Of a DNA stretch of 64,000 bases, positions 1 to 41,080 are shown piece by piece. The position numbers and the translations under genes were made by a program. The DNA is from Pseudomonadota bacterium. Lineage in GTDB: Bacteria > Pseudomonadota > Alphaproteobacteria > Micavibrionales > CSBR16-224. Location of the stretch: assembly GCA_013285465.1 (NCBI GenBank), contig CP053449.1:741540-805539 (forward strand), written 5' to 3'. Below the pieces are notes generated by a model that worked only from the letters and a program-made list of their open reading frames with translations, ran no database searches and was not told where the DNA came from. How positions within the stretch are numbered: the first letter of the stretch is position 1; each line of letters begins with the position of its first letter.

Positions 1-438
1 TTTTACAGCGGTAACAAGAGTCTTGGAGTCCAGATAGGCATACAACGAAAGGTTTTCTGTAATTGCTGTAGTATCATAATGCACTTCCAAGAATTGATTA
101 AATATCTTTTGAATGAGAGAGCTATATTGTTGGTTGCTGTCAATTGCGTCCATTATTGATGAAAGCTCTTGGTAAGCAGGTAGGGCATAGTTTTTTTTGA
201 CATTTAAAAGAGCGTTTAAGTTAGCAATGAGCATTGCTAGTACTTGATTAATTTGTGATAAAGATTTTTCGCGTTCTTTACTCTTGTTAAGAAACCATAC
301 GCAATATGCACCACCAAAGGCACCAAAAGCTGAGCCTATAGCCGCCGTCATAAAATCGGGAGAAAGAAAGCCTACTGCCCACTCCCAAAATGTGAGTAAG
401 AAATTCGTGATTGTGACACCGACATCCTTATAGGCCAT
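1..438 (-). CDS. hypothetical membrane protein, 3' end cut by window edge
   Basis: Absent from the ORF track because it is open at the edge. The minus strand from ATG (complement of 436-438) reads MAYKDVGVTITNFLLTFWEWAVGFLSPDFMTAAIGSAFGAFGGAYCVWFLNKSKEREK... for 146 codons with no stop. Hydrophobic N-terminus followed by a polar helical region. Visibly AT-rich. Confidence 0.4.
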   Translation of the reverse strand, partial: MAYKDVGVTITNFLLTFWEWAVGFLSPDFMTAAIGSAFGAFGGAYCVWFLNKSKEREKSLSQINQVLAMLIANLNALLNVKKNYALPAYQELSSIMDAIDSNQQYSSLIQKIFNQFLEVHYDTTAITENLSLYAYLDSKTLVTAVK

Positions 439-444
439 CGCGTG

Positions 445-1719
445 TTATGCCGTCTTCTTATTCGCAGGATTACGCGGGTCTTCCAGCCAGGTCATATAGG
501 GCTTGTCGTGCTGGACTTCCTCCATCGTGATGCAATCATCCACAGGGCAGACATGCATGCACAGGTTACAGCCGACGCATTCCGCATCAATCACCGTATA
601 TTTGCGGTCACCATCGACGCGCTCCGCGGTAATCGCCTGATGCGAGGTATCCTCGCAGGCAATGTGGCACAGCCCGCATTTGATGCACAAATCCTGATTG
701 ATCAGCGCTTTGATATCGTAATTCATATCCAGCTGACCCCAATTGACGAAGTTTTTCGAGGCTTGGCCGCGGAAATCCTCGATGGTGTCATAACCTTTTT
801 CATCCATCCAGTTATTCAACCCGTCAACCATATCTTCAACGATTTTAAAGCCGTAATGCATGGCCGCCGTGCAAACCTGTACCGTGCCTGCACCCAGCGC
901 AATAAATTCCGCCGCATCGCGCCATGTTTCCACGCCGCCGATGCCGGAGATCGGAATGTTTTTGCAATCAGGGTCGCGGGCAATCTCGCCGACCATATTC
1001 AGCGCAATCGGCTTCACAGCCGGGCCGCAATAACCGCCATGCGCGCCTTTGCCGTTCACGACAGGCTCGGGTGCCATCACATCAAGATTGACCGAGGTGA
1101 TGGAATTGATGGTGTTGATCAGGGAGACACCATCCGCACCGCCATTCACTGCCGCACGGGCGGGCAGGAGGATATTGGTGATATTCGGCGTCAGCTTGAC
1201 CAGTGTCGGAATTTTGGTGTGTTTCTTGCACCATTCCGTGACCATCTGGATATATTCGGGAACCTGACCAACGGCGGAGCCCATACCGCGTTCGGACATG
1301 CCATGCGGGCAGCCGAAATTCAGCTCGATGCCGTCACAACCCGTCGTTTCAACGCGGCGCAGTATTTTTTCCCAGCTTTCTTCTTCACAAGGCACCATCA
1401 GCGACACAATCATGGCGCGGTCGGGCCAGTTCTTTTTCACGCGGGAAATTTCCGTCAGATTCACGTCCAGCGGACGGTCGGTAATCAGCTCGATATTATT
1501 AAAACCGGCAATTTTCGAGCCGTTATAATGCATCGCGCCATAGCGGGAGGAGACATTTACAACCGGCGGATCTTCGCCCAGCGTTTTCCAGACAACGCCG
1601 CCCCATCCGGCTTCAAAAGCGCGCACGACGTTATATTCCTTATCCGTCGGCGGTGCCGAGGCCAGCCAGAACGGGTTGGGGGATTTAATACCGACAAAAT
1701 TTGAACTAAGGTCTGCCAT
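445..1719 (-). CDS. preA: NAD-dependent dihydropyrimidine dehydrogenase subunit PreA (DHOD-like TIM barrel plus 2x[4Fe-4S] ferredoxin tail)
   Basis: MADLSSNFVGIKSPNPFWLASAPP..., GCPHGM, and C-terminal CIKCGLCHIACED and CVGCNLCMHVCPV cluster motifs. Start moved to the ATG at 1719 (MADLS); the track ORF runs on upstream into preT. Confidence 0.9.
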   Translation of the reverse strand: MADLSSNFVGIKSPNPFWLASAPPTDKEYNVVRAFEAGWGGVVWKTLGEDPPVVNVSSRYGAMHYNGSKIAGFNNIELITDRPLDVNLTEISRVKKNWPDRAMIVSLMVPCEEESWEKILRRVETTGCDGIELNFGCPHGMSERGMGSAVGQVPEYIQMVTEWCKKHTKIPTLVKLTPNITNILLPARAAVNGGADGVSLINTINSITSVNLDVMAPEPVVNGKGAHGGYCGPAVKPIALNMVGEIARDPDCKNIPISGIGGVETWRDAAEFIALGAGTVQVCTAAMHYGFKIVEDMVDGLNNWMDEKGYDTIEDFRGQASKNFVNWGQLDMNYDIKALINQDLCIKCGLCHIACEDTSHQAITAERVDGDRKYTVIDAECVGCNLCMHVCPVDDCITMEEVQHDKPYMTWLEDPRNPANKKTA

Positions 1720-1747
1720 AATGAAATGTCCTTTTTCTTGAAATATT

Positions 1748-3148
1748 TTAAGCCGAAAGCGCGCGGTCAATAGCGATGGCGGCGCGTTTGCCGTCCTCGA
1801 CCGCCGCAACGGTTAAATCCTGCCCTTCGGTGCAATCACCGCCCGCCCAGACATTGTCCAGCGAGGTCTGACAATCTTCATTCACCGCAATCTTGCCCTT
1901 CGGCGTGATGGTCAGCAAATCGCGCCCGCCGTCCTGCAAGGGGGAGGGAACAAAATACTGCCCGATGGCCTTATAGACCGTATCGACCAGCAGGGTAAAA
2001 CTATCGCCCGTGCCCATCAGCTTGCCGTTTCCATCCAGCTGCGTGTATTCAAATTCAATCTGGCGGACATGACCGTTCCAGCCGATCAAGCGTTTCGGCT
2101 GTGCCCAATGTTTGATCAAGACACCGTTTTCCTGTGCAAGGTCTTGCTCGTGCCAGGTCGCACTCATTTCATCCGGTCCGCGGCGGTAAACCAGCGTTAC
2201 ATCTTCCGCACCCAGACGTTTGGTCTGGATGGCGATATCAATGGCGGTGTTGCCGCCGCCGATCACGACGATCTTGCGCCCGACGGGCAGATCGGCAAAA
2301 TCTTTGGCCTGACGTAGCGCGGCAATATAATCAACGGCGTTTTCCACGCCCTCTAAATCCTCACCATCCAGCCCCAGCTTATTGACACCGGCAAGACCCA
2401 TGCCGAGGAAGACCGCATCATAATCGCGGCGCAAATCTTCCAGCTTGATATTGTCGCCCAATCTCTGACCGTTACGGATTTCAATGCCGCCGATGGAGAG
2501 AATATAGTCCAGCTCCTGCTGTGCGAAATCATCGGGCAGCTTATAGGCGGCGATACCGTATTCATTCAGGCCGCCGGCTTTTTCATGGGCTTCAAAGACA
2601 ACGACATCATGCCCCAGTGTCGCCAGACGATGCGTGCAAGACATACCGGCAGGACCGCCGCCGACCACGGCGACTTTTTTGCCCGTCGCGGCTTTACGCG
2701 TAAAGATTTGTTTGTCATCACGCGCCATCAAACCGTCAACGGCATAGCGCTGCAGGCGGCCGATTTTGACAGGCTGGCTGTTTTGCGTATTGCGTACGCA
2801 GGCATCTTCGCACAGTTCTTCCACAGGGCAGACACGCGCACAGGCACCGCCCATAATATTGGCACTCAGAATATCCGTGGCAGCGCCTTTGACATTATTT
2901 GTCGAGATTTTGTGGATAAAGCTCGGAATATCGATCCCCGTCGGGCAAGCCTCAACGCAAGGCGCGTCATAGCAGAAATAGCAACGGTCAGCCTCGATCA
3001 CCGCACGGCGGCGGTCAAGCGCGGGCAGCAAATCGCTGAAATTCTCGTTATAGGCTTCCGCATTCAGCCGTCCGGCTTTAATATCCGGCGTTTCCGGTAC
3101 GGGCGGCATTTCGATCGGCGTTTTCGCCGCTTGGGAACTATCAGTCAT
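1748..3148 (-). CDS. preT: dihydropyrimidine dehydrogenase subunit PreT (glutamate synthase small-chain-like FAD/NAD oxidoreductase)
   Basis: Fe-S Cys motifs CYFCYDAPCVEACP and CARVCPVEELCEDAC. Dinucleotide folds VAVVGGGPAGMSC and IVVIGGGNTAID. Lies immediately upstream of preA on the same strand. Start chosen at MTDSSQ. Confidence 0.85.
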   Translation of the reverse strand: MTDSSQAAKTPIEMPPVPETPDIKAGRLNAEAYNENFSDLLPALDRRRAVIEADRCYFCYDAPCVEACPTGIDIPSFIHKISTNNVKGAATDILSANIMGGACARVCPVEELCEDACVRNTQNSQPVKIGRLQRYAVDGLMARDDKQIFTRKAATGKKVAVVGGGPAGMSCTHRLATLGHDVVVFEAHEKAGGLNEYGIAAYKLPDDFAQQELDYILSIGGIEIRNGQRLGDNIKLEDLRRDYDAVFLGMGLAGVNKLGLDGEDLEGVENAVDYIAALRQAKDFADLPVGRKIVVIGGGNTAIDIAIQTKRLGAEDVTLVYRRGPDEMSATWHEQDLAQENGVLIKHWAQPKRLIGWNGHVRQIEFEYTQLDGNGKLMGTGDSFTLLVDTVYKAIGQYFVPSPLQDGGRDLLTITPKGKIAVNEDCQTSLDNVWAGGDCTEGQDLTVAAVEDGKRAAIAIDRALSA

Positions 3149-3405
3149 TCTGGTCCTCAAAATCTGGTCAGTGTTGTCTTGCTTACACACACGCTTTATA
3201 ACCACGCCAGCAGTCAGAGGAATTTTTTTATTGCAGAAAAGGTAGTCGAAGCCATCCCTCCCGTCAAGCCTTCCAACAGCTTAGGGCCGTTTCGGAAGAA
3301 TGTTTCAAGATTCCGAAAAATATTTAATTTTTGACATCACGGCAGGCTTTTCCTACACTTTCAAACACAGCATATATCGAAGAAAAAAATCATTGGGAGA
3401 ATCGA

Positions 3406-4056
3406 ATGAACAAGTCCTTGCGTCTTGCCATTGAGGGTAATATTGGTGTCGGAAAGTCAACTTTGCTTAACACTCTGCCCGCACAGCTCGGCGATAACTG
3501 GTTCCCGCTTCCCGAACGCGCTGACGAAGACCCCGAATTCCGCCGCCTTTTGAACGAGTTTTACGCCGATCCGAATAAACGCGTCAATCTGCAGGCATGG
3601 ATCACCAATAGCCGCATTGAAGAATGCAAAACCCTGCGCGCAGACAGCAACTATATTTTCGAACGCTCCTTCATCGGCGATATGATCTTCTGCCACGCCA
3701 ATTTCATGCGCCATGAACGCCCCTCGGGCGAATTGCTTGGCTTTTACTACGATATTATGAAGGCGGCAAAGGATCATCCGCTTGATGCGCTGATCTATCT
3801 GAAAGCCTCGCCGGAAACCTGCCACAGCCGCATTCTTGACCGCAGCCGCGCCGCTGAAGACGGCATCCCGATGAGCTATATCCGCTATCTGCACGGCTGC
3901 TATGAAACCCATCTGCCGGAAATTGCCCGCACGCTGAATATTCCGGTGATCGAAATCGATTGGGAAAGCTTCCAAAAAACCGAATATGTTGCGGAAAAGC
4001 TTGAAAATTTCATACAAAATGGTATATATGGCACGACAATAAGGAAAATCGCCTAA
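3406..4056 (+). CDS. deoxynucleoside kinase family protein
   Basis: P-loop IEGNIGVGKSTLL, ERS motif (IFERSFIGD) and LID-like RILDRSRAAEDGI. GGGAGA Shine-Dalgarno 6 nt upstream of the ATG at 3406. Confidence 0.8.
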   Translation: MNKSLRLAIEGNIGVGKSTLLNTLPAQLGDNWFPLPERADEDPEFRRLLNEFYADPNKRVNLQAWITNSRIEECKTLRADSNYIFERSFIGDMIFCHANFMRHERPSGELLGFYYDIMKAAKDHPLDALIYLKASPETCHSRILDRSRAAEDGIPMSYIRYLHGCYETHLPEIARTLNIPVIEIDWESFQKTEYVAEKLENFIQNGIYGTTIRKIA

Positions 4057-4083
4057 AGCTTTTATAGCTGAACGGAGTGCCAA

Positions 4084-5064
4084 ATGCAGAAAATTTCCGC
4101 CGTCATTTTCGACGTCGATAACACGCTTTATGATTTCACCGCCTTCTATCGCCCGGCTTTCGAGGCGATGCTCGATAAAATCTCTGAAAAAAGCGGCATT
4201 GATCAGGAACAGCTGAAAAAAGAATTCCGCGCCATCCATCAGCGCGAAGGCACCTCCGAATTCGTTTTCGCCGTACAGGAGCTCCCATCTTTAAAGAAAT
4301 TGCATCCCGGCGAAGACCTTACCGAAACCTATGCCGATGCCATCCATGCCTTCCGCAAGGCACGTAAACAGAATTTGAAGCTCTATGACGGCGTGAAAGA
4401 AACGCTGGAAAAGCTGAAAGAGTCAGGCACGCGCATCATTGCCTATACGGAATCCCCCGGCTATCACGCCATGTCACGCTTGAAACAACTGGGGCTGGAC
4501 GGTCTTATTGACTGCGTTTATTCAATGCCCGACCATGACATGCCCGGCCAAGTCAAACGCGAAGATGTGCGCCTTTACGATAAAAGCAATTACGCCTTCG
4601 CAAAAACCGAAATGCGCCACACCACGCCGGGGGTTTTAAAACCGAACCCGGAAACACTGGAGGGCATTGTCGAAGAACTCAATATCGATGCGGATGAAGT
4701 CCTCTATGTCGGCGATCACTTAATGAAGGATGTCAGCATGGCAAAGGCGATGGGGCTGCACGCCGCCCATGCCGCCTATGGCTCCTATATGGGCGACAAT
4801 AATTACGAATTGCTCAAACAGCTGACCTTCTGGACCGATGAGATGATCGAAAAGGAAAAACAATATCACGACCAACCCCAAATCGCGCCCGATACCACGC
4901 TGTCCAAAAACATCAATGAACTGTTCCGGCATTTCACCTTTACTGCCTATCAGGGAACCCCGAAAGACAGCGCCAAATTCGCCGCCAGCCCGTTCTGCAA
5001 AACCACGCAGGATGCGGAAAAACCATCCGCCAAACAACAATCCCCGAAAACACCGAAACGCTAA
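4084..5064 (+). CDS. HAD-superfamily hydrolase with basic C-terminal tail
   Basis: HAD motif I VIFDVDNTLYDF, motif III-like K(PNP) and motif IV VGDHLMKDV. About 90 aa of extra C-terminal low-complexity sequence. Confidence 0.75.
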   Translation: MQKISAVIFDVDNTLYDFTAFYRPAFEAMLDKISEKSGIDQEQLKKEFRAIHQREGTSEFVFAVQELPSLKKLHPGEDLTETYADAIHAFRKARKQNLKLYDGVKETLEKLKESGTRIIAYTESPGYHAMSRLKQLGLDGLIDCVYSMPDHDMPGQVKREDVRLYDKSNYAFAKTEMRHTTPGVLKPNPETLEGIVEELNIDADEVLYVGDHLMKDVSMAKAMGLHAAHAAYGSYMGDNNYELLKQLTFWTDEMIEKEKQYHDQPQIAPDTTLSKNINELFRHFTFTAYQGTPKDSAKFAASPFCKTTQDAEKPSAKQQSPKTPKR

Positions 5065-5151
5065 AAACGGGCTTTTCAGCTTGCATGAATACGAAAAATA
5101 GCGTATTCAAAGGGCCTGAAAAACTTTGCTTTTACGGCGTAATGAACAGTC

Positions 5152-6459
5152 ATGGATAATGTGAACACGGAAACAGTCGCGGAAAATGAAACCACCGCTC
5201 CGCAAGATATTGATATCGTCACCTTCGGCTGTCGATTGAATATCCATGAATCCGAAGTCATGCGCGACCATGCCAAATCAGCCGGATTGAAAGACACCGT
5301 CATCATCAATACCTGCGCCGTGACGAAAGAGGCGGAGCGCAGTGCGCGTCAAGCCATCCGCCGTTTGCGCCGCGAACGTCCCTCGGCAAATATCGTCGTC
5401 ACAGGCTGTTCGGCGCAGATTGATCCCGCAAGCTATGCCAAAATGCCCGAGGTTAATCATGTCATCGGCAATGATTTGAAATTGAAGGCCGAAACATGGC
5501 AGAGCGCACAACATCCGCCCGCAAAAGTACTCGTCAATGACATCATGTCGGTGAAAGAAACCGCAGGCCATCTGATCAGCGGCTTTGAAACCCATGCCCG
5601 CGCTTTCGTCCAAGTGCAAAACGGCTGTGACCACCGCTGCACTTTCTGCATCATTCCCTTCGGGCGCGGCAATTCGCGCTCCGTCCCGATTGGCGAGATT
5701 GTCGATCAGGTGCGCAAACTCGTCGCCGCAGGCTATGCCGAGGTTGTGCTGACAGGCGTTGACGTCACCTCCTACGGGCCTGATCTGCCGGGCAATCCGA
5801 CGCTGGGGCAGATGATCCGCCGCTTGCTGGCACTCGTCCCTGAACTGACGCGGTTGCGCCTGTCCTCGCTTGATCCTGTCGAAATTGATGATGATCTCTG
5901 GCATCTGATCGAACATGAGCCGCGCTTGATGCCGCATCTGCATCTTTCCGTTCAGGCAGGGGATGATATGATTTTAAAACGGATGAAGCGCCGCCATCTA
6001 CGCAAAGATATTCTCGATGTTTGTGAAAAGGCGCGCCGTCTGCGCCCTGATATTGTCTTCGGCGCGGATATCATCGCAGGCTTTCCGACCGAAACCGACG
6101 AGATGTTTGAAAATACCCGCAAGCTGGTGGCGGAGGCGGGGCTGGCCTATCTGCATGTCTTCCCTTATTCGCCGCGCCCCGGAACGCCTGCGGCACGGAT
6201 GCCGCAAGTGGCGGGCAATATCCGCAAATCCCGCGCCGCCATTCTGCGTGCGGAAGGCGCAACGCAGTTACAGGCATTGCTGGCAAAACATGACGGCAGC
6301 CTGTGCAATGTGCTGGTGGAAAAAAACAATGCGGGGCATAGTGAACATTTCCTGCCTGTTGTGCTACAAGAAGAAAATGATGACGTTCCGCACGGAACAC
6401 TTCTGCCGGTGCGCATTACCGGCATCACGGAAGACAAAGCATTGGGAGTGCGCGCATGA
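5152..6459 (+). CDS. mtaB: radical-SAM methylthiotransferase, MtaB-like (tRNA t6A37 methylthiolation)
   Basis: UPF0004 N-domain ([12 protein letters not shown]...INTCAVT...VTGC), radical [14 protein letters not shown] and a TRAM-like C-terminus. ATGA overlap with ftsY; I recall the mtaB-ftsY order as common in alphaproteobacteria (from memory, not checked here). Confidence 0.85.
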
Positions 6460-7802
6460 TCTGGTTTTTTCGCAAGAAAAAAAAGGATAAACCGAAAGAG
6501 GAAGAGCTTCCCGTAGAAGAAGCGGCGGAAGAAGTTGTCGCAGAACCCGCGCCCGAACCGGAACCCGAACCCGAACCCGAACCCGCGCCCGAACCTGTCG
6601 CTGAAATTGTCGAAGAGATAGAAGAAACAGTGCTGGAAGTTGCGGAGGTCATCGCACCGCCGCCGATTGAAACGGCAGCCGCTGTCGCCCCCGCACCGGA
6701 ACCTGCACCAGAGCCAGAGCCTGAGCCTGAGCCTGAGCCTGAGCCGGAACCCGAACCCGAACCCGAACCCGAACCCGAACCCGAACCTGAACCCGAGCCC
6801 GAGCCCGAGCCCGAACCCGTTGCTATTGCGGAAGAGGTAGCCGAAGAGCTGCCGGAAGAAAAACCGGAAGAGAAAAAAGGCTGGTTCTCTCGCCTGACGC
6901 AGGGTCTCAGCAAAACCTCCTCGCAATTAACGGAAAATATTACTGCCGTTTTCACCAAGAAAAAGCTCGATGCGCAAATGCTGGAGGAGCTGGAAGAGGC
7001 GTTGATTATCGCCGATATCGGCCCCGAAACCGCTGTGGCTTTAACGGAAGCGCTGTCAAAAGAACGCTTCGGCAAGGAAATCAGCTCCGAGGAAGTCCGC
7101 GAGTTTCTGGCGGAAAAAATTGCGGATATTCTGGAACCCGTCATGCAGCCGCTGGTGCTGGAAACGCCGGAAAGCGGCGGGCCTTGCGTGGTGCTGGTCG
7201 CGGGCGTGAACGGTGCGGGGAAAACCACGACCATCGGCAAAATGGCGCATCATTACCGCGCACAGGGCAAAAAGGTCATGATGGCCGCGGGTGATACGTT
7301 CCGCGCTGCCGCTGTGGAACAATTGAAAGTCTGGGGCGAGCGCACGGGCGCACCGGTGATTGCCAAGGATACGGGCGCAGATGCGGGCGCACTGGCCTAT
7401 GAAGCCTATGAAGCCGCGAAAAAACAGGGCATGGATATTCTGCTGGTTGATACGGCGGGGCGCTTGCAAAACAAAACCGATCTGATGGCGGAGCTGGAAA
7501 AAGTCGTGCGCGTCTTGAAAAAACATGATGAAAGCGCGCCGCATACCACGCTGCTGGTGCTGGATGCCACGGTCGGGCAGAATGCCCATAGTCAGGTTGA
7601 TATTTTCGGCAAAACCGTTGATGTGACAGGGCTGATCATGACCAAACTCGACGGTTCCGCAAAGGGCGGGGTGGTGGTGTCACTGGCACAGAAATTCGGC
7701 CTGCCGATTCATGCCATCGGTATCGGCGAGGGGGTGGATGATCTGCGTCCCTTTGATGCCGTGTCCTTCGCGCGTTCATTGATGGGGCTTGACCGGTCTT
7801 AA
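6456..7802 (+). CDS. ftsY: signal recognition particle receptor FtsY with an acidic (EP)n-rich A domain
   Basis: NG domain motifs [18 protein letters not shown] and [10 protein letters not shown]. The N-terminal 150 aa are acidic with Glu-Pro repeats. Confidence 0.95.
6543..6590 (+). repeat. in-frame GAACCN hexanucleotide repeat block 1 ([18 protein letters not shown])
   Basis: Direct reading of 6543-6590. In frame with ftsY. Confidence 0.9.
6687..6818 (+). repeat. in-frame hexanucleotide tandem repeat block 2, 18 consecutive Glu-Pro units (6711-6818) after APAPEPAP
   Basis: Runs of GAGCC(A/T), then GAACCC, then GAGCCC units read directly. In frame with ftsY. Confidence 0.9.
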
Positions 7803-7908
7803 CAACACACCCGTAAATTCTGTTACAAAAACTTAACATTTATGTGATACTGTCTGATAATGCTTTGCTTTTCTGCGGGGCGTATTTTTCGAATATTTCA
7901 AGGTTTCT

Positions 7909-9465
7909 TTGACAATGCCCACACGTTACCCTTCACCGATCAAACCCGGACGCAGCACGAAAGTGTTCCGCAGCCCTGAAAAGGCGTTGCAGCATATCAA
8001 AGAAATCTATGACAGGAATGTCACCTATTTGCGCCGCCGTTTCGAGGATTTCTGTAACAAGGAAGGCTTGCCGACGGAACGCTCCACGGCGCATTACCCC
8101 TATATCCTGTTTAAAACCAAAACCTATCCTTCGGTTGACCGCCGCTTGTCTTACGGTTTTGTCACCCAGCCGGGCATGTATTCCACAACCGTCACGCGGC
8201 CTGATATTTTTGACCATTATTTCAAGGAACAATTGACCCTGCTGTGCGAAAACCACAGCGATGCGAAACTTGAAATCGGTGTGAGCGATGTGCCGATCCC
8301 GCTGCATTTCGCACTGGGGGAGGATTTTTATCTGGAAGGTGAGCTTTCCTCGACAAAGCTGGATGCCTTGCCGCTGCTGTTTGATCTGCCTGATCTCAGT
8401 ATGATGGATGATAAAATCGCCAACGGTATTTATCTGCTGGATGAAGATACGGAGGCGAATGTGCAGCCGCTGTCCCTGTTTACTGCGCCGCGCGTTGATG
8501 TCAGCCTGCAGCGGTTGAAACATTATACGGGCACATCTTCCGAGCATTTCCAGAATTTCGTCATTTACACGAACTATCAGTTCTATATTGATGAATTTAT
8601 CCGTAACGGCATGCGTCTGATGTCTTATACGGAGGAAAAGGAACTGGCGAAAGAGCGGTCGGAATATGTCTCCTTTGTCGAGCCGGGCAATAAAATCACC
8701 CATAACGCCAATCTTCCCGGCGGGATGAGCAAAGACGGCTTTCCCCGCATCGAAGGCGGCAGTATGAGCCGTATCCCGCAAATGCCTGCCTATCACTTGA
8801 AACGGGCAAACGGGTCGGGCATTACCATGATCAATATCGGTGTCGGTCCCTCCAATGCCAAAAACATCACCGACCATGTCGCCGTGCTGCGTCCGCATGC
8901 ATGGCTGATGCTGGGTCACTGCGCGGGCCTCCGGAATTCGCAGCGTCTGGGTGATTATGTGCTGGCACATGCCTATATCCGTGAAGATGCCATTTTGGAT
9001 GATGATTTGCCGCTGCATGTGCCACTTCCGGCCTTGTCGGAAATTCAGCTGGCGCTGGCCTCGGCAATGAGCGAGGTCACAGGGCTGGATGATTACGAAT
9101 TCAAACGGATTATGCGCACGGGAACGGTTGCCAGCATTAATGACCGTAACTGGGAGCTGCGCGACCAGAAGGAGCTGATGTGGCATTTCAGCCAAAGCCG
9201 TGCGATTGCGCTGGATATGGAATCCGCGACCATTGCCGCAAACGGTTTCCGTTTCCGCGTTCCTTACGGTACGCTGCTCTGCGTGTCTGATAAGCCGCTG
9301 CACGGGCAATTGAAACTGCCGGGTATGGCGGATGAGTTCTACCGCGAACGTGTTGACCAGCACTTGAAAATCGGTCTTCTGGCAATGGAAAAACTGCGCG
9401 CCATGGGCAAGGAAAGATTGCACAGCCGCAAGTTGCGCAGCTTTACCGAAGTTGCATTTCAGTAA
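7909..9465 (+). CDS. amn: AMP nucleosidase
   Basis: Collinear with my recollection of E. coli Amn: FTAPRVDVSLQRLKHYTGT, INIGVGPSNAKNITDHVAVLRP, MESATIAANGFRFRVPYGTLLCVSDKPLHG and LHSRKLRSF. The start could be TTG 7909 or ATG 7915. Confidence 0.9.
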   Translation: MTMPTRYPSPIKPGRSTKVFRSPEKALQHIKEIYDRNVTYLRRRFEDFCNKEGLPTERSTAHYPYILFKTKTYPSVDRRLSYGFVTQPGMYSTTVTRPDIFDHYFKEQLTLLCENHSDAKLEIGVSDVPIPLHFALGEDFYLEGELSSTKLDALPLLFDLPDLSMMDDKIANGIYLLDEDTEANVQPLSLFTAPRVDVSLQRLKHYTGTSSEHFQNFVIYTNYQFYIDEFIRNGMRLMSYTEEKELAKERSEYVSFVEPGNKITHNANLPGGMSKDGFPRIEGGSMSRIPQMPAYHLKRANGSGITMINIGVGPSNAKNITDHVAVLRPHAWLMLGHCAGLRNSQRLGDYVLAHAYIREDAILDDDLPLHVPLPALSEIQLALASAMSEVTGLDDYEFKRIMRTGTVASINDRNWELRDQKELMWHFSQSRAIALDMESATIAANGFRFRVPYGTLLCVSDKPLHGQLKLPGMADEFYRERVDQHLKIGLLAMEKLRAMGKERLHSRKLRSFTEVAFQ

Positions 9466-9558
9466 AAACTTCCCGATAATAATAAACAGATATACGGATT
9501 TTCCCTTGATGGCAGGGGATGACCGCTTGGACGCAAACCGAAAGACGCGGGCAGCAGC

Positions 9559-10290
9559 GTGGATCTGATAGAATTTATCGAGAAAACCAGCAAAGCCGAC
9601 ACAGTCGAGCAGCTTTTCGCCCTGCTTGAAAATGTCATGTCCAATTACGGTTTTGACCGTGTGCTGTTCAGCCTGATGACGGATCATCCTTCGATCGGAA
9701 AATCTGCCGGCCACGGCATTATGCGGAATTATCCCGGCGAATGGATGGCCTATTACGCCGATAAGAAATATGAGGATGTCGACCCTGTCCGCCAATATGT
9801 CGTGCAGGCTCCGGCACCTTTTACATGGTCGTTTCTGGAAGACAAGCTGCAATTGATGCCGGACCAGCAAAAAGTGATGGATGAAGCGCGTGAAGCGGGT
9901 CTGTATCACGGTATTGCCATTCCGATGCGCGGGCCGATGGGGGCGATTGCGGGGATAGGTGCGGCCGGCAGCGGGGCGGATGGCAGTGATATTTCCCGTG
10001 ATACGCTGGCGCTGGTCAATGCCGCCTGTCAGCAGTTTTACGCGTCTTTCATCGGGTTGGAGCAGCAAGCCGTCCCGCCGGAGCAGGAAGGTGTTAGCCT
10101 GACAGAGCGGGAAAAAGAAGTGCTGAAATGGTGCGCCCAGGGCAAGACCACATGGGAAATCGGTGTCATTCTTGGCCTGTCCGAGGCGGGCGTGTTGTTT
10201 CATCTGCGCAATGTGATGAAAAAATTCAATACTTCCTCACGCGTTTATGCGGTGATGCAGGCGGTACGTTTTGGATTAATACAGCTGTAA
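9559..10290 (+). CDS. LuxR-family transcriptional regulator (autoinducer-binding domain plus HTH), orphan/solo
   Basis: N-terminal ligand-domain residues in the expected order (W..Y..DP...W, G). C-terminal LTEREKEVLKWCAQGKTTWEIGVILGLSEAGVLFHLRNVMKKF. GTG start. No luxI-like gene in the window. Confidence 0.85.
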   Translation: MDLIEFIEKTSKADTVEQLFALLENVMSNYGFDRVLFSLMTDHPSIGKSAGHGIMRNYPGEWMAYYADKKYEDVDPVRQYVVQAPAPFTWSFLEDKLQLMPDQQKVMDEAREAGLYHGIAIPMRGPMGAIAGIGAAGSGADGSDISRDTLALVNAACQQFYASFIGLEQQAVPPEQEGVSLTEREKEVLKWCAQGKTTWEIGVILGLSEAGVLFHLRNVMKKFNTSSRVYAVMQAVRFGLIQL

Positions 10291-10371
10291 AAGTTTTTGA
10301 CGCAAAACGAAAATAGGCTATAGTGGGAAGATACGGGATTAACATTTTTAAACTAAAGTGCACTAAAAATC

Positions 10372-10980
10372 ATGGCAGATAAAAAAGCGGAACAGGCCAC
10401 GGCGGAGGAGCCTTCGATCGAGGAAATCCTCGAATCCATTCGTCAGATCATATCTGACGATGATGAAGATGGCGATGATGCCGGCGATGTTATCATGGAT
10501 GTCGAAGCGGATAAGGATAAAGCCGGCGATGTCGATCTGCCGAAAAAGGACGATGATGACAAGCCCGCCGATATCGAAGGCGATGTGACGGAACAGGCTG
10601 TTGATGACGGCGATGTACTAGAGTTGCGTGATGTCGTTGAAGAAGGCGGCGCTGCGGATATTTCGATGGATGCTGCGGAAGATGATTATGAGCCCGCCGA
10701 TATCGAAGGTGATATGACGGATGCGGATGACAGCCGTTTGATCTCGGAAGATACGGAAGAGGCCGCCGTCGGCGCGATGGCGAAACTGGCGGAAAATATG
10801 TTTGTCGAAGAACACACCGCGGCAGGCATCGCCCCGGCCGGACGCGTGACGCTGGAACATATCACGCGGGAACTGTTACGTCCGATGCTGAAGGAATGGC
10901 TTGACCGCCGCCTTCCCGGATTGGTGGAGGAGCTGGTCGAGCGTGAAATTAAGAAAATCTCCGACCGTTCCAAGAAATAA
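10372..10980 (+). CDS. PopZ-like pole-organizing protein (DUF2497 family)
   Basis: N-terminal EPSIEEILESIRQIISDDD and C-terminal TLEHITRELLRPMLKEWLDRRLPGLVEELVEREIKKIS match the two conserved ends of Caulobacter PopZ as I recall it. The middle is a long acidic linker. Confidence 0.75.
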   Translation: MADKKAEQATAEEPSIEEILESIRQIISDDDEDGDDAGDVIMDVEADKDKAGDVDLPKKDDDDKPADIEGDVTEQAVDDGDVLELRDVVEEGGAADISMDAAEDDYEPADIEGDMTDADDSRLISEDTEEAAVGAMAKLAENMFVEEHTAAGIAPAGRVTLEHITRELLRPMLKEWLDRRLPGLVEELVEREIKKISDRSKK

Positions 10981-13371: not shown

Positions 13372-13989
13372 ATGAAGCGTTCAGCGAATCACAGTCTGCC
13401 TAGCAGCCTCGTTATTTTCGCGTTGGTTTTCAGCATGTTGCTGGCCGGCACCGCTTTCGTGCGCACGGCAATGGCACAAAATGCCGCGCCACCGCCTGCT
13501 GCGGCGTATCAGGGCGTCCCGCAGGGCTATAACTATGCCAATAACAAGATTATCCGCCTGACCCCGAATGAATCCCATATTCTGCACCTGAACCGTAATG
13601 CCGCCAGCGTGATTGTGGCCAATCCCGTTCATGCGGGTGTGTTTCTGGATACACCGCGCGTGTTGGTGATTGTTCCGGGTACGCCGGGCGCAACCTCTTT
13701 TACGGTTCTGGATGTGGAAGGTAATGAAATCATGCGCCGCGATGTGATTATCTCGGAACGTCAGAACAAATATGTCCGTATTCAGCGTATTTGCACGGGC
13801 GGCGGCAATTGTGTTCCCAGTTCGGTCTATTTCTGTCCGGACGGATGTCATCAGGTTTCCACGACATCGCGCGACAGCGGTTCCGTTAATGTCAGCGCCC
13901 GCCCGGCTCCGGCACCTGCCGGCGGTATGGATGGCGGCGGCGGAGACATGGAAGAACCCGCGGATGTGAATGAGGGGGACGGATACTGA
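13372..13989 (+). CDS. secreted protein with a pilus-assembly N-terminal (CpaC/secretin N-domain-like) region and Cys-rich tail
   Basis: Signal peptide ...AGTAFVRTAMA-QN. The segment IIRLTPNESHILHLNRNAASVIVANPVHAGVFLDTPRVLVIVPGTPGATSFTVLDVEGNEI resembles the short beta-domain at the N-terminus of Flp/Tad secretins. There is no secretin domain. Confidence 0.55.
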   Translation: MKRSANHSLPSSLVIFALVFSMLLAGTAFVRTAMAQNAAPPPAAAYQGVPQGYNYANNKIIRLTPNESHILHLNRNAASVIVANPVHAGVFLDTPRVLVIVPGTPGATSFTVLDVEGNEIMRRDVIISERQNKYVRIQRICTGGGNCVPSSVYFCPDGCHQVSTTSRDSGSVNVSARPAPAPAGGMDGGGGDMEEPADVNEGDGY

Positions 13990-14699
13990 TGACAGAGCAA
14001 TCCTCAAACCGTATAAAAATTCTGCTCTCGACGGCTTTTTGCGGCTTGATGCTGTTCGGCTGTCAGAACAGCAGTTCACAAACGGGCATGTATCAGCAGG
14101 CACTGGAATCGCGCCAGCAGATTACACATTCCAATGCCGGTGAAGCCGTTCAACTTTATGAAAGGCTTTACGCCCGCAACAGCGGTGATATCGGCATTAC
14201 CGTGAAATATGCAGAAGCTTTGCGCAAGGCGGGTATGCCGCAACAGGCGCTGACTGTTTTGTCACCGCTGGCGGAATCGCAAATGAAGGCAAAACCTGCG
14301 GTTCTGGTTGAATATGCGGCGTCTAATATTGCCGTCGGGCGCTTTATGCATGCACAGCATGCGCTGGATAAATTCTATGGGCTGGATAAGAAAAACGCCG
14401 CGGATAAAGATGATTTGCAGCCGCAGGCGCTGAACCTGAACGGCTTGGTCTTGTCGGCCTCGGGCCATCACGCAGAAGCGGAAGAGAAATACCGCGAGGC
14501 ACTGGCCTCATGGCTGGGCAATCCGTCGGTTGTGATGAATAATCTGGCCTTATCGCTGGCACAGCAGGGCAAATTTGACGAAGCGCTTGATTTTCTGGAA
14601 CAGGCACAACGTCAGAGTACGCCGGAACAGCAAGGCATGCATGACCAAAACCTTGCGCTGGTCGAAAAACTGCAGAAAAAATCCGCGAAAAAGAAATAA
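13989..14699 (+). CDS. TPR-repeat lipoprotein, TadD-like
   Basis: Lipobox LMLFG-C. TPR-like helical repeats throughout. The start overlaps the upstream stop (TGATG at 13987-13991), suggesting translational coupling. Confidence 0.6.
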   Translation: MTEQSSNRIKILLSTAFCGLMLFGCQNSSSQTGMYQQALESRQQITHSNAGEAVQLYERLYARNSGDIGITVKYAEALRKAGMPQQALTVLSPLAESQMKAKPAVLVEYAASNIAVGRFMHAQHALDKFYGLDKKNAADKDDLQPQALNLNGLVLSASGHHAEAEEKYREALASWLGNPSVVMNNLALSLAQQGKFDEALDFLEQAQRQSTPEQQGMHDQNLALVEKLQKKSAKKK

Positions 14700-14729
14700 T
14701 CGCGGCTTTCCGGCGGCTCCTCAAAATCT

Positions 14730-15101
14730 TTAAGACGGATCTTCGCGCTTGCCCATGCGTTTCATGCGTTCACCCAGTTGATTTGCCATGTCGTTTAGAC
14801 AATCTGCGGCATTGGGTGTCAGGCCGAAATCGATTTCCAGCTGTCTTTGAATATGCGCAGGGGCTTCTTCGCCGGGGCCCCATTCGATAATTTCGCCATA
14901 ATCCTTGATATTGCAGAATGCGTCATTCTGCGCGGCGACAAAGGCATCGTATTTTTCCATCGGCACCATCAGATAAGCCCAGTAATCCTCGTCGTCGATG
15001 GTGACACTCACATGCATGATAAAACCGGCATGGTCATCATCAGCGGCGATATGCCGCATCAGATCCTGTGGCGCATCGCCGGTATCGTGGTCATCATCCA
15101 T
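14730..15101 (-). CDS. small acidic hypothetical protein (123 aa)
   Basis: ORF 21 nt downstream of the BTLCP gene on the same strand. No signal peptide and no family recognised. Confidence 0.5.
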   Translation of the reverse strand: MDDDHDTGDAPQDLMRHIAADDDHAGFIMHVSVTIDDEDYWAYLMVPMEKYDAFVAAQNDAFCNIKDYGEIIEWGPGEEAPAHIQRQLEIDFGLTPNAADCLNDMANQLGERMKRMGKREDPS

Positions 15102-15122
15102 GAGGGCTTCTTTCTAAATGAT

Positions 15123-16091
15123 TTAAGAATTCTGGACGCGGTGCATCCACCAGCTGCCCTGATTGATCGAGAAAATCGGTTTATAGCGCGTGACGTTGTT
15201 GATATTGCGCATGGCCTTATCCTGATTGTCCAGAACATAGCTTTGGCCGTTTTCCGCATAAACGATCAGAACCGCATGCGGAATGTTTTTGATCTTGTCA
15301 TGCACAATGGCAATACGCAACCGCTCCGCCGGTACGCCGAGGGCGCGCAGGGAGGCATATTTGGCAATTGCGAAGTCTTCACAATCGCCGCCGCGGCTGA
15401 AAAACTCGACGGGGGTGGCCCAATGGTCGGTCTGTCCCCAGTTTTTGGCATCGGTGATATATTGCACCTTATTGATATAGTTGTTCACGGCGGCAATTTT
15501 GTCTGCCGTGCTCAGATGACGGATGCGTGACAGCTCGGCCTTCCATAATTGCAGGCGCGGTGCGGTTGCGCCGGAATGTGCGGTGAGCTGTTTTTCAAAA
15601 CGGTCCAGCATTTTCGTCCATTTTGTAAAAGCGGCCGTGTTGTCGGAACGGATTTCCGTTGTGCCGAACAGGGACGGATACTGTAAAGCTGCGGCTTTAT
15701 TAAAGGGCGTGGCCGTGGTGGCAGAGGCCAGAACAATCTGTCCGCTTTGTGCCTGACCCGATCCGGCACGCGCTGCGCTGGGTACAGCCGTTGCGCCCAT
15801 CATAAATGTCAAACCATAGGCGCTGACGCGCACACACCACTGTTCCGCCAGTTTACGGTACAGCATGGCGGCGGTAATGGCGCCGCTTTTGATCAAGACT
15901 TTACCCAAAGGCTCACGGGTACGCGCCTGCATTGCCAGTGCGCTTTCCAATTGCTCTGTCGTAATCATACCGGAGGAGACCAGAAGATCACCCAGACGAT
16001 TCTTTTTCAGGTGCAGGGCAACGGTGTGAAAAAATCCGGTTCTTGCACGCTTCTCTTCCGTCATTGTGATATTTTGATATGTGTCGCTCAT
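15123..16091 (-). CDS. MshEN (c-di-GMP-binding T2SSE_N-like) domain / single TM / BTLCP transglutaminase-like cysteine protease fusion
   Basis: Residues 32-55 RLGDLLVSSGMITTEQLESALAMQ and 61-84 PLGKVLIKSGAITAAMLYRKLAEQ each fit RLGxx(LVI)(LVI)xxG(LVIF)(LVI)xxxxLxxxLxxQ and are separated by 5 residues. Hydrophobic segment at about 86-108. BTLCP core GGDCEDFAIAKY (C237), IPHAVLIVY (H272) and YVLDNQ (D288). Confidence 0.8.
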   Translation of the reverse strand: MSDTYQNITMTEEKRARTGFFHTVALHLKKNRLGDLLVSSGMITTEQLESALAMQARTREPLGKVLIKSGAITAAMLYRKLAEQWCVRVSAYGLTFMMGATAVPSAARAGSGQAQSGQIVLASATTATPFNKAAALQYPSLFGTTEIRSDNTAAFTKWTKMLDRFEKQLTAHSGATAPRLQLWKAELSRIRHLSTADKIAAVNNYINKVQYITDAKNWGQTDHWATPVEFFSRGGDCEDFAIAKYASLRALGVPAERLRIAIVHDKIKNIPHAVLIVYAENGQSYVLDNQDKAMRNINNVTRYKPIFSINQGSWWMHRVQNS

Positions 16092-16286
16092 ATTTCCCCC
16101 ACCGAAAGCCCCGTCTTCTGCCTTTTCTGCGGAACTTCGGAACGCTCTTAGGTCTGTGTTCTTACAGCTCTATTAGACCACAAAAGATTTAACAAAATAT
16201 GAAAACTAACAAAGGCTTGAGATTGCGGCAAAAATCTGCTATGAAAAATACTAATCCCGTGTGATAACGATAAAAAGGCGGACGAC

Positions 16287-40297: not shown

Positions 40298-41080
40298 TTA
40301 AGGTTTCAAATTTTGAATCTCGGAAAGGCGGCGAACGGCATGTTCGTCGCCTTTTTTCGCGGCTTTCTCATACCAGAATTTTGCCAGCGCGGGATTGGCA
40401 GCCAAATTGCCTTCACCGGAAAAATAGGCATCGCCGATCCGCCGGAACCAGAGGCGGGATTTTGTTTTCTCCGCCGCTTTCACAGCCCATTGCACGGATT
40501 TCCGCGCATCTTTTTCCAGCCCGTTCAAACCGTGCTGATAGGCACGGCTTAGCGCAATCGCGGCATGAAGATTATCATGCATGGCGGCTTTTTCCATCCA
40601 GTTATGCCATTGCGCCTCGTCGCGGGATTGGCCATTGCCGCTTTCCAGACACATCATCGCCAGATCATATTGCGCGGCGCTGTGTCCGGCCTCTGCCGCA
40701 AGGCGCAGCCAGTGCCGTGCTTTCTCCGGTTCCGGCGGGGTTTTGGTCAAACGGTAAAACACACCCAGACGGAAACGCGCATCGCCCGCATCCTGCTCCG
40801 CGGCTTTTAAAAACCAGTATTCGGCACGGCTCAGATCGGTCGCAACGCCGGTAAAATGGTCTTCGGCATACATAAAGCCCAACCGCAGCTGCGCCATACC
40901 GTGCCCGGCCTCGGCCGCTTCAAGATAGAATTTTTCCGCCGCAGGATAATCGGGCGGCTGCGCGGTAAAAAACTTCTCGCCGTCTTGAAACAGTGTTTCC
41001 GGGTCAAAGATAATCCGTGCCTCGGCACGGAAGGACAGAATCAGAATGAACAGGACGGGCAGGACATAGAGTTTTTTCAT
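40298..41080 (-). CDS. secreted Sel1-repeat (TPR-like) protein
   Basis: Signal peptide MKKLYVLPVLFILILSFRAEA. Repeated A..W..KAAE.G...AQ..LG..Y units. Confidence 0.8.
   Translation of the reverse strand: MKKLYVLPVLFILILSFRAEARIIFDPETLFQDGEKFFTAQPPDYPAAEKFYLEAAEAGHGMAQLRLGFMYAEDHFTGVATDLSRAEYWFLKAAEQDAGDARFRLGVFYRLTKTPPEPEKARHWLRLAAEAGHSAAQYDLAMMCLESGNGQSRDEAQWHNWMEKAAMHDNLHAAIALSRAYQHGLNGLEKDARKSVQWAVKAAEKTKSRLWFRRIGDAYFSGEGNLAANPALAKFWYEKAAKKGDEHAVRRLSEIQNLKP

Follow-up and report, generated by a model that had tools for sequence, protein, structure and literature searches.

LapG, a BTLCP protease, lacks a sensor of its own and is sequestered by a separate GGDEF-EAL receptor, LapD. In Desulfovibrio vulgaris, the DvhG/DvhD system (PMC13090378, 2026) is also regulated by c-di-GMP but operates without a GGDEF-EAL receptor. 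DvhG is a BTLCP with a nonstandard N terminus, in which a real TM-helix anchor is followed by a disordered linker of ~180 residues; it carries no cytoplasmic sensor domain, and sensing is performed by the separate DvhD, a type for which c-di-GMP binding has been shown (PMC13090378). In the alphaproteobacterium Caulobacter crescentus, the BTLCP HvyA blocks capsulation (PMC4241560). HvyA is a periplasmic protein with a Sec signal and a triad needed for function, its gene belongs to a capsule locus, and its abundance is set by cell-cycle transcription and proteolysis. MshEN modules, such as those of VcMshE (5HTL), PilF (GSPII-B), and NfrB (PMC5013675), are four-helix bundles built from two 24-residue motifs in tandem, 5 residues apart, and their known partner domains are cytoplasmic ATPases, glycosyltransferases, REC, CheA, and similar domains.

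The window, which is the whole 64-kb stretch of DNA that was analyzed, holds an ORF in which an MshEN module of the MshEN_N type and a LapG-like BTLCP domain flank a hydrophobic segment within a single polypeptide (Table 1). This arrangement had been claimed in a first-pass annotation. The ORF has the stated position and strand and a length of 322 aa, and its translation reproduced the placement of the two motifs, C237, H272, and D288. The sequence GGTGGGGG lies 5 nt 5′ of the ATG. The fusion is a genuine and conserved architecture: both modules, as defined by the NCBIfam model NF053729 and a LapG model, are present in all 88 homologues scanned, and 116 of the best 120 homologues are full length (290–360 aa). 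An identical protein is encoded on 8 public contigs. A gene-fusion or frameshift artefact is ruled out by the occurrence of the same architecture in more than 100 homologues. At 50% identity, ~20 clusters are fused, and nearly all of them derive from Micavibrio-like genomes.

We found no description of the fusion in the searched literature on MshEN, BTLCP, LapG, PF06035, or COG3672. Likewise, Peptidase_C93 is absent from the available part of Supplementary Table 4 of PMC5013675, and the terms C93, BTLCP, LapG, and transglutaminase returned nothing from that supplement as a whole. The earlier remark that no characterized example was known therefore holds for the fusion itself, but partial precedents are available. 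These are DvhG and, as the nearest analogue of the fusion in the accessible portion of the table, an uncharacterized MshEN_N-Peptidase_M23 protein (Acaryochloris NlpD).

Table 1. Features of the fusion gene and its surroundings, in window coordinates.
Feature	Position	Strand	Basis or remark
Whole ORF, precursor of the MshEN_N / signal peptide / BTLCP protein, 322 aa + stop	15123..16091	(-)	As stated earlier
MshEN_N motif 1, residues 32-55 (RLGDLLVSSGMITTEQLESALAMQ)	15927..15998	(-)	Profile match, translation
Spacer, 5 residues, 56-60 (ARTRE)	15912..15926	(-)	Translation
MshEN_N motif 2, residues 61-84 (PLGKVLIKSGAITAAMLYRKLAEQ)	15840..15911	(-)	Profile match, translation
Signal-peptide-like segment, residues 85-109 (WCVR VSAYGLTFMMGATAV PSAARA)	15765..15839	(-)	n-region R88, 15-residue h-region, c-region A107-x-A109
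Linker, variable length, poorly conserved, residues 110-139	15675..15764	(-)	Low column conservation, frequent gaps
BTLCP (Peptidase_C93) catalytic domain, residues 140-322	15126..15674	(-)	Pfam, LapG structures, AF2
C237	15381-15383	(-)	Catalytic Cys
H272	15276-15278	(-)	Catalytic His
D288	15228-15230	(-)	Catalytic Asp
Calcium motif D236-C-E-D239	15375-15386	(-)	Invariant, n = 88
Divergent spacer shared with hldE, 195 bp	16092..16286	(.)	91-450 bp in 37 genomes
hldE (PfkB kinase + cytidylyltransferase; ADP-heptose synthesis)	16287..17726	(+)	Divergent; Pfam assignment
Acidic 123-aa ORF, 22 nt 3′ of the fusion-gene stop	14730..15101	(-)	No Pfam match

The protease half was matched by Peptidase_C93 (PF06035) over residues 195 to 304 at 4e-21 (75.9 bits, against a gathering score of 27 bits) and by the LapG structures 4U65 and 4FGO at 1e-22. 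The C237-H272-D288 triad aligns with the catalytic motifs of LapG and, together with DCED, is invariant among 88 sequences, which bears out the BTLCP core and triad read earlier from the sequence and the PF06035 check proposed for it. Residues D236-C-E238-D239 align with the GDCEDY/F motif of LapG, and the equivalent calcium-motif D/E residues of DvhG are essential (PMC13090378). With the LapG/LapD systems of Pseudomonas fluorescens and Legionella (4FGO, 4U65) the window protein shares the BTLCP fold, the triad, the DCED calcium motif, ~30 to 35% identity over the catalytic domain, an N-terminal-type export signal, and an expected control by c-di-GMP. However, its score against the LapG equivalog model of NCBIfam (NF045674) was 112.5 bits, short of the cut-off of 320, no LapD gene lies nearby, and its putative sensor is of the MshEN_N type and lies in cis, on the cytoplasmic flank of the signal peptide. 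We class the protein as a BTLCP relative and not as a LapG orthologue. It resembles HvyA as an alphaproteobacterial, periplasmic BTLCP with a Sec signal but differs in its c-di-GMP module, which HvyA lacks.

At the N terminus, NF053729, a model of the MshE-related c-di-GMP motif, matched residues 32 to 84 over all of its 53 positions (1–53) with 64.7 bits (E = 4.8e-18; cut-off 38 bits), so that the tandem motif proposed earlier, with its 5-residue gap, was recovered by a curated profile. Pfam T2SSE_N (PF05157), the check that the first-pass annotation had named, gave no match to the protein. This miss does not refute the assignment, because the PF05157 model, according to the supplement of PMC5013675, spans the MshEN_C/N1 part rather than the c-di-GMP site, and that part is absent from the window protein. 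In motif 1, the counterparts of VcMshE R9, L10, G11, D12, L25, L29, and Q32 are all kept, and G34, L48, A51, and L52 are invariant across the family; conservation in motif 2 covers L62, G63, L77, L81, and Q84. No guanine-stacking Leu, Gly, or Gln position has been lost. The deviations from the 24-residue motif RLGxx(L/V/I)(L/V/I)xxG(L/V/I/F)(L/V/I)xxxxLxxxLxxQ are M42, A71, and P61, and the spacer measures exactly 5 residues in all 68 sequences in which the motif expression caught both copies.

Structural comparisons agree with this assignment. A phmmer search of the PDB matched the c-di-GMP-binding PilF GSPII domain and MshE 5HTL at 6e-12 to 7e-6. The AF2 model, in which residues 31 to 80 have pLDDT values of 86 to 97, was superposed by Foldseek on c-di-GMP-bound 5HTL with an rmsd of 1.1 Å over 57 residues and on c-di-GMP-bound 8PFA with 1.0 Å over 55 residues, at 42 to 45% identity to these ligand-bound domains. 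VcMshEN_N alone (residues 1–62) binds c-di-GMP with a KD of 0.35 μM (PMC5013675), and the annotation of Micavibrio aeruginosavorus ARL-13 includes diguanylate cyclase, EAL, and PilZ genes. From these data we infer that the N-terminal module binds cytoplasmic c-di-GMP.

Residues 85 to 109, which directly follow motif 2, had been described as a hydrophobic stretch forming one TM helix that tethers the protein to the membrane. Such a stretch is present. It is, however, short, only weakly hydrophobic, and succeeded by a conserved AxA site, features that fit a signal peptide better than a tether. Among 100 parsed sequences, the h-region measures 14 residues in 81 and AxA is found in 96. In the family alignment of 116 sequences, P104 is present in 107, A107 in 113, and A109 in 114; a basic residue (K/R88) marks the n-region of every member, and the +1 residue is D/E in 84, with Pro outside the six commonest residues at that position. 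A basic n-region, an h-region of roughly 7 to 15 residues, small c-region residues at -3 and -1, and a +1 residue other than Pro are the features of a cleavable Sec (SPase I) signal. Inspection of 18 divergent fused representatives showed the same n/h/c layout, in most cases with a small-x-small site after the core, and non-fused relatives carry ordinary N-terminal signal peptides at the equivalent position. For the best 19-mer, the predicted insertion energy was +5.1 kcal/mol in the window protein, +8.0 as the fused-family median, and +2.4 in the signal peptides of non-fused relatives, against -2.4 to -5.7 kcal/mol for control TM helices of DvhD-like proteins (one helix +1.1), a comparison among related sequences, so that its p-values overstate independence.

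Residues 85 to 109 are therefore probably a cleavable Sec signal peptide with a predicted cut after A109, as judged from sequence, and the MshEN_N and protease halves probably separate after export. How efficiently such a weak h-region would support export is uncertain. A Tat signal, suggested by the weak h-region and a basic c-region residue, was not adopted because no twin arginine stands beside the h-region, and a LapG-type di-alanine self-cleavage site in PSAARA is ruled out since position 106 may hold P, A, S, V, or T. Export of the relatives, together with positive charges placed N-terminally of the segment, leaves N-in/C-out as the only sensible topology, and the placement of the sensor in the cytoplasm and the protease in the periplasm stands as first proposed.

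That the sensor abuts what is probably a cleavable signal peptide, and not a true anchor, points to regulation at export or release. Our best explanation is consequently an MshEN_N-signal peptide-BTLCP precursor whose export or release, rather than stable-tether signaling, would be controlled by c-di-GMP; we advance it tentatively, with somewhat less than even confidence. The reading put forward by the first-pass annotation, an uncleaved signal anchor in an intact bitopic inner-membrane protein, would have c-di-GMP signal to a tethered protease, either across the membrane or through altered clustering or localization. The AF2 model is compatible with this, as it draws a single helix (residues 74–101) continuous with the last MshEN helix, and DvhG is a working BTLCP on an N-terminal TM anchor with a disordered linker (PMC13090378). 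Furthermore, Q84 and K/R88 occur in 116 of 116 sequences, so that the Q-x3-K/R spacing is fixed (it is also kept in the 17 divergent fused representatives with a readable motif-2 Gln), and this register also fits a piston or rotation signal. However, for the core of 14 to 15 residues the predicted insertion energy is positive, and most members carry a polar Gln (position 99, 85 of 116); for a TM helix of the kind found in DvhG, the segment lacks both length and hydrophobicity. The near-invariant A107 and A109 and the acidic residues would also be needless in a permanent anchor, and MshEN_N is a single-chain ligand binder and so offers no obvious dimer switch. Direct coupling as originally envisaged, with the protease domain under allosteric control from across the membrane, is unlikely because the linker, which has ~30 residues, is poorly conserved and disordered in the AF2 model (pLDDT < 50 for residues 102–131) and thus unfit to relay a conformational signal. 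Overall, we regard an uncleaved anchor, including either signal route, as unlikely.

An arrangement in cis also accords with the gene neighborhoods. As had been claimed earlier, no LapD-like partner is encoded in the window: neither a LapD-like nor a DvhD-like gene was found among its scanned ORFs, and none was found within 10 kb in 37 related loci. Among the nearest non-fused relatives, in contrast, 21 of 43 have a DvhD-like PAS/HD-GYP membrane protein encoded next to them, whereas such a neighbor occurs within 10 kb in 0 of the 37 fused loci. One of three scanned PAS/HD-GYP neighbors gave a weak dCache match, below the cut-off. The sole conserved neighbor of the fused gene is hldE, which in 36 of the 37 fused-family loci adjoins it and is transcribed divergently. 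Cotranscription of the downstream 123-aa ORF with the fusion gene is probable; as a conserved partner this ORF is ruled out by its presence in only 1 of 37 related loci. A promoter and terminator scan of 14600 to 16400 returned nothing above chance, and a c-di-GMP riboswitch upstream of the fusion gene is excluded because an Rfam scan of the 64-kb window matched no family.

These neighborhoods bear on the question of what the protease cuts. If the export or release model holds, the likeliest substrate would be a type-1-secreted RTX adhesin with which the cell attaches to prey or surfaces. Two loci combine a large RTX protein with a BTLCP: in L045 a giant RTX protein stands beside a BTLCP/DvhD-type pair and ends 83 bp from the DvhD-like gene, and in L059 the RTX protein lies ~6 kb from the BTLCP. 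In ARL-13, a 2892-aa RTX/vWA protein that adjoins TolC/HlyB/HlyD is induced in the attachment phase (PMC3189940). The window itself has no T1SS or RTX gene among its scanned ORFs, and an operon with an adhesin, T1SS, or LapD is ruled out there for the same reason. At a further locus (L019), ten neighboring ORFs were scanned and yielded no LapD, adhesin, or T1SS, and all annotated ones are housekeeping genes.

The same architecture might instead act on envelope or polysaccharide machinery in the manner of HvyA, whose target is not an adhesin (PMC4241560). This alternative draws on the absence of adhesin and T1SS genes from the scanned ORFs near the fused gene, and on the identity of hldE as an LPS-core sugar-nucleotide gene. 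Against it, the closest relatives without the fusion resemble DvhG and pair with DvhD-type receptors, two of the loci contain the RTX proteins described above, genes for Lap-type adhesins often lie elsewhere in the genome (PMC13090378), and the link to hldE may be plain synteny. We consider a target other than a LapA-like adhesin to be about as improbable as the uncleaved anchor.

Extended signal peptide regions of autotransporters serve roles such as targeting, chaperoning, or slowing export. A loss of c-di-GMP binding that leaves the module as a structural N-terminal extension of this kind is quite improbable: the opening Arg of motif 2 has given way to Pro, Gln, or other residues, motif 2 is looser in more distant fused members, and changes of key residues abolished binding in MshEN-like domains such as XpsE (Wang et al., PMC5013675), but the residues missing from XpsE (equivalents of G11, L29, G40, L54, L58, and Q61) are all present and show little or no variation across the family, the curated c-di-GMP motif model is matched by 88 of 88 members at E ≤ 0.001, the relaxed motif [RKPN]hG... 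admits P61 (Wang et al., PMC5013675), and the PilF stretch best aligned with residues 30 to 86 likewise lacks that Arg and has Leu in its place.

Under the preferred explanation, the ORF would encode the precursor of a periplasmic, calcium-dependent cysteine protease of the LapG/DvhG type, in which a 53-residue MshEN_N domain directly precedes a Sec signal peptide in fixed helical register. Occupancy by c-di-GMP would alter the fate of the adjoining, unusually weak signal peptide, deciding either whether the precursor engages the Sec machinery or whether signal peptidase cuts after A109 and frees the protease from the inner membrane. In both cases c-di-GMP, acting in cis, would determine how much free protease the periplasm receives and thereby do the job of LapD or DvhD, and by analogy with the Lap and Dvh logic, high c-di-GMP would keep the protease off its substrate. 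An 84-residue folded domain ahead of a bacterial signal peptide is unusual. To our knowledge, there is no proven case of ligand-gated Sec export, and we know of no bacterial ligand-binding domain shown to regulate export or release through an adjoining signal peptide. The full proposal, a ligand-dependent signal peptide through which c-di-GMP gates Sec translocation or signal-peptidase release and so switches adhesin-mediated prey attachment in Micavibrio-like predators, is rather doubtful, and we offer it as a possibility.

The known c-di-GMP control of periplasmic BTLCPs relies only on separate transmembrane receptors, namely LapD (GGDEF-EAL) and, since 2026, DvhD (degenerate HD-GYP). If the export or release model is true, the family described here would be a third solution, in which the receptor is fused in cis to the protease precursor and the n-region of a signal peptide carries second-messenger control of protein export. 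Almost all members of the family come from Micavibrio-like epibiotic predators, whose life cycle centers on attachment to prey and release from it, steps that are poorly understood. The fusion thus suggests that these predators may control a surface-protein-cutting enzyme in an undescribed way, without a separate receptor.

Profile searches confirmed that a c-di-GMP-binding motif and a BTLCP domain are carried by one ORF, which is preceded at 5 nt by a ribosome-binding site (GGTGGGGG) and has a G+C content of 53.1%, compared with 52.4% for the window. With Pfam, the Peptidase_C93/BTLCP match anticipated by the first-pass annotation was obtained at residues 195–304 (4e-21), and the C-terminal half matches LapG among PDB sequences (4U65_E, 2e-22; 4FGO, 1e-21). 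The NCBIfam model NF053729 for the MshE-related c-di-GMP-binding motif matches residues 32–84 (E = 4.8e-18; 64.7 bits, cut-off 38) over profile positions 1–53 of 53. These residues also match the MshEN region of NfrB, a c-di-GMP-activated glycosyltransferase (NCBIfam), and the N-terminal part matches PDB sequences of PilF c-di-GMP-binding GSPII domains (6e-12 to 6e-6) and of MshE (5HTL, 7e-6). The coordinates originally assigned to the MshEN motif, and the positions of C237, H272, and D288, were exact. The Pfam T2SSE_N match that the same annotation had suggested looking for is absent from the protein. The supplement to Wang et al. (2016; PMC5013675) describes the T2SSE_N model as omitting both the c-di-GMP site and the first three helices and as spanning the MshEN_C part, which the window protein does not have. 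By every testable measure of sequence and fold, the N-terminal module belongs to MshEN_N.

An AF2 model of the protein, built from an 88-sequence alignment (mean pLDDT 82), contains helices at residues 20–29, 33–39, 45–58, and 62–69 plus one long helix at 74–101, a disordered stretch at 102–131, and a confident BTLCP domain at roughly 140–320 that Foldseek places on LapG (E = 1e-11). The N-terminal bundle superimposes on c-di-GMP-bound MshE with an rmsd of 1.1 Å over 57 residues (42% identity) and on PilF GSPII-B with 1.0 Å over 55 residues (45% identity). Its guanine-stacking and hydrogen-bonding positions are L33, G34, D35, L48, L52, Q55, L62, G63, K64, L77, L81, and Q84, whose counterparts in VcMshE are, in order, L10, G11, D12, L25, L29, Q32, L39, G40, D41, L54, L58, and Q61 (Wang et al., PMC5013675). 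The sole differences at the site are P61 for Arg38 and K64 for Asp41. Because the remaining positions are kept, the PilF stretch aligning best with residues 30–86 has Leu at the Arg38-equivalent position, and isolated VcMshEN_N (residues 1–62) binds c-di-GMP with a KD of 0.35 μM (PMC5013675), the modeled N-terminal module is likely to bind c-di-GMP.

The fusion holds well beyond the window, since all 88 aligned homologues match both NF053729 and the LapG model. A length of 290–360 aa marks 116 of the 120 top database relatives as full length, and the two motif copies are separated by 5 residues wherever the motif regular expression found both. Of the 150 best-matching representatives in a 50%-identity clustered library, about 20 carry the fusion, and the remainder are ordinary BTLCPs of 190–260 aa. 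Full-length matches occur at 37 loci of species-representative genomes, most of them named Micavibrio, Pseudobdellovibrionaceae (NCBI's placement of Micavibrio), or uncultured Alphaproteobacteria/Rhodospirillales, and including the cultured M. aeruginosavorus HCB189. The window protein is identical to one on a 2.67-Mb MAG contig labeled Pseudomonadota bacterium. Separately, three exported database proteins of 417–453 aa (P0178, P0198, and P0216) carry two tandem BTLCP-like domains, the first without the catalytic Cys.

The hydrophobic segment had been read as one TM helix tethering the protease to the membrane, but it looks like a cleavable Sec signal peptide (predicted residues 85–109). Its position is that of the ordinary N-terminal signal peptides of the non-fused relatives; the AxA that closes these peptides lies a few residues ahead of a conserved LFG motif. 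Across 116 fused members, K/R88 is present in all, Gln at position 99 in 85, P104 in 107, A107 in 113, A109 in 114, and D/E at +1 in 84; the hydrophobic core is 14 residues long in 81 of 100 parsed sequences (consensus ASAAGLTLMMQTMT). Insertion was scored with a position-independent biological hydrophobicity scale summed over the best 19-mer. The window protein gave +5.1 kcal/mol and the fused family a median of +8.0, compared with a median of +2.4 for the signal peptides of 40 non-fused relatives, and five of six control TM helices from DvhD-like proteins gave −2.4 to −5.7 (the sixth, +1.1). The n-, h-, and c-region layout is kept in 18 divergent fused representatives, whose cores are somewhat more hydrophobic and mostly followed by a small-x-small site. 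Neither the 14-residue core nor the invariant AxA with acidic residues behind it is required of a permanent anchor, which argues for the signal-peptide reading. The mature protease would then be residues 110–322, with a predicted size of about 23 kDa, similar to the non-fused BTLCPs of the same search (190–260 aa including signal peptides).

A stable tether with direct transmembrane coupling, as first proposed, is made doubtful by the AxA site after a short core. A variable linker, predicted to be disordered, follows the cleavage site, which also makes it look unlikely that the folded protease is controlled allosterically across the membrane. On the simplest reading, the ligand, once bound, would act on the signal peptide itself. 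Q84, the last c-di-GMP-contacting residue, and K/R88, the n-region charge, are both invariant, so that all 116 sequences share one Q-x3-K/R spacing; it also recurs in 17 distant fused representatives with a readable motif-2 Gln. In the AF2 model, the last helix of the sensor and the h-region form a single helix. The step affected might be Sec engagement or signal peptidase access to A107-x-A109, and the unusually weak h-region would make export or release easy to tip. By Lap/Dvh logic, high c-di-GMP would keep the protease from its substrate. We offer such ligand-gated export or release only tentatively. At the junction, W85 (116/116) and C86 (110/116) are near-invariant and lie outside the published c-di-GMP motif.

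Coordinates of features in the window and at related loci
Feature	Coordinates	Strand	Remark
LuxR-type regulator, autoinducer-binding and GerE domains	9559–10290	+	side observation
Secretin-N-like protein (T2SS-T3SS_pil_N)	13372–13989	+	stop overlaps TPR gene start
TPR protein	13989–14699	+	start overlaps stop of secretin-N-like gene
Fused BTLCP ORF	15123–16091	-	intact, 322 codons
W85 and C86	15834–15839	-	sensor/signal-peptide junction
hldE–BTLCP spacer	16092–16286	.	intergenic
hldE	16287–17726	+	divergent from fused BTLCP gene
Ankyrin-repeat protein	22864–23568	+	
Pentapeptide-repeat protein	33270–34562	-	430 aa
Sel1-repeat protein	40298–41080	-	
Ankyrin-repeat protein	52268–53098	-	
L045 RTX protein	1–7575	+	>2525 aa, 13 GGxGxD repeats
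L045 DvhD-like gene	7658–9997	-	RTX gene ends 83 bp away
L045 BTLCP	10001–10858	+	
Non-fused loci with DvhD-like neighbor			L038, L040, L042, L045, L047, L050, L054–L056, L058, L060–L063, L070–L074, L079, L080

The only conserved neighbor is hldE, divergently transcribed in 36 of the 37 fused loci (L001–L037), with spacers of 91–450 bp; other neighbors differ, and conservation does not extend to the 123-aa ORF downstream. TTGACGAA, part of AAAGATTGACGAAT, occurs in 18 of the 37 spacers, and a full CtrA-type box (TTAA-N7-TTAA) in 7, against a rough expectation of <1. The window's spacer gave no CtrA-type match in the scan, and no TTGACGAA was seen in it by eye. The secretin-N-like/TPR pair adjoining the BTLCP gene is shared with one related locus only (L001), and no other pilus genes were found among the window ORFs scanned. 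The LuxR-type regulator belongs to a genome with obligate predators among its relatives; quorum sensing is among the keywords of the M. aeruginosavorus ARL-13 paper (PMC3189940). The density of eukaryote-like repeat proteins is unusual for 64 kb. Rfam yielded no family above the gathering score over positions 1–64,000, and hence no Rfam-recognized tRNA, rRNA, or riboswitch.

The scanned ORFs of the window, like ten from M. aeruginosavorus HCB189, are mostly housekeeping or lack a Pfam match, and neither set contains GGDEF, EAL, HD-GYP receptor, T1SS, or RTX domains. Consistent with the earlier claim that a LapD-like partner is missing, none was found among the scanned window ORFs, and no DvhD-like gene lies within 10 kb of the fused gene at any of the 37 loci. 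Among non-fused relatives, 21 of 43 BTLCPs, from Rhodospirillales and other Proteobacteria, adjoin a PAS/HD-GYP membrane protein of about 700 aa; a weak, below-cut-off dCache match is present in one of three scanned. These neighbors are of the DvhD type. DvhD, whose HD-GYP domain is degenerate, was shown in 2026 to bind c-di-GMP and to regulate the BTLCP DvhG (PMC13090378), and such pairs seem common outside sulfate reducers.

As in LapG- and DvhG-type systems, c-di-GMP would govern a periplasmic BTLCP. The window protein scores 112.5 bits with the LapG model, far under the equivalog cut-off of 320, and has no LapD partner among the ORFs scanned, so it is no LapG orthologue; lacking a true TM helix and DvhD, it is not of the DvhG type either. 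Within the part of Supplementary Table 4 of Wang et al. (PMC5013675) covered here, the architecture that comes closest is the uncharacterized MshEN_N-Peptidase_M23; Peptidase_C93 is absent from that part, and the whole supplement has no term match for BTLCP, transglutaminase, C93, or LapG. The first-pass annotation knew of no characterized example, and full-text literature outside most subscription journals yielded no mention of an MshEN_N-BTLCP fusion.

Large RTX proteins occur at two non-fused loci, L045 and L059, and in L045, from an alphaproteobacterial (Rhodospirillales) MAG, the RTX, DvhD-like, and BTLCP genes seem to form a complete adhesin locus of the Dvh kind. M. aeruginosavorus ARL-13 has several annotated diguanylate cyclase, EAL, and PilZ genes and an attachment-induced 2892-aa RTX/vWA protein beside TolC/HlyB/HlyD (PMC3189940). 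An adhesin is therefore a plausible candidate substrate. Alternatively, the fused protease may act on an envelope target, for which the hldE linkage leaves room; HvyA, an alphaproteobacterial BTLCP, acts on capsulation, not an adhesin (PMC4241560). Taken together, the neighborhood, RTX, and clade c-di-GMP gene evidence suggests an origin of the fused family from DvhG-like proteases controlled by c-di-GMP; the separate receptor appears to have been replaced by a cis sensor in these small predator genomes.
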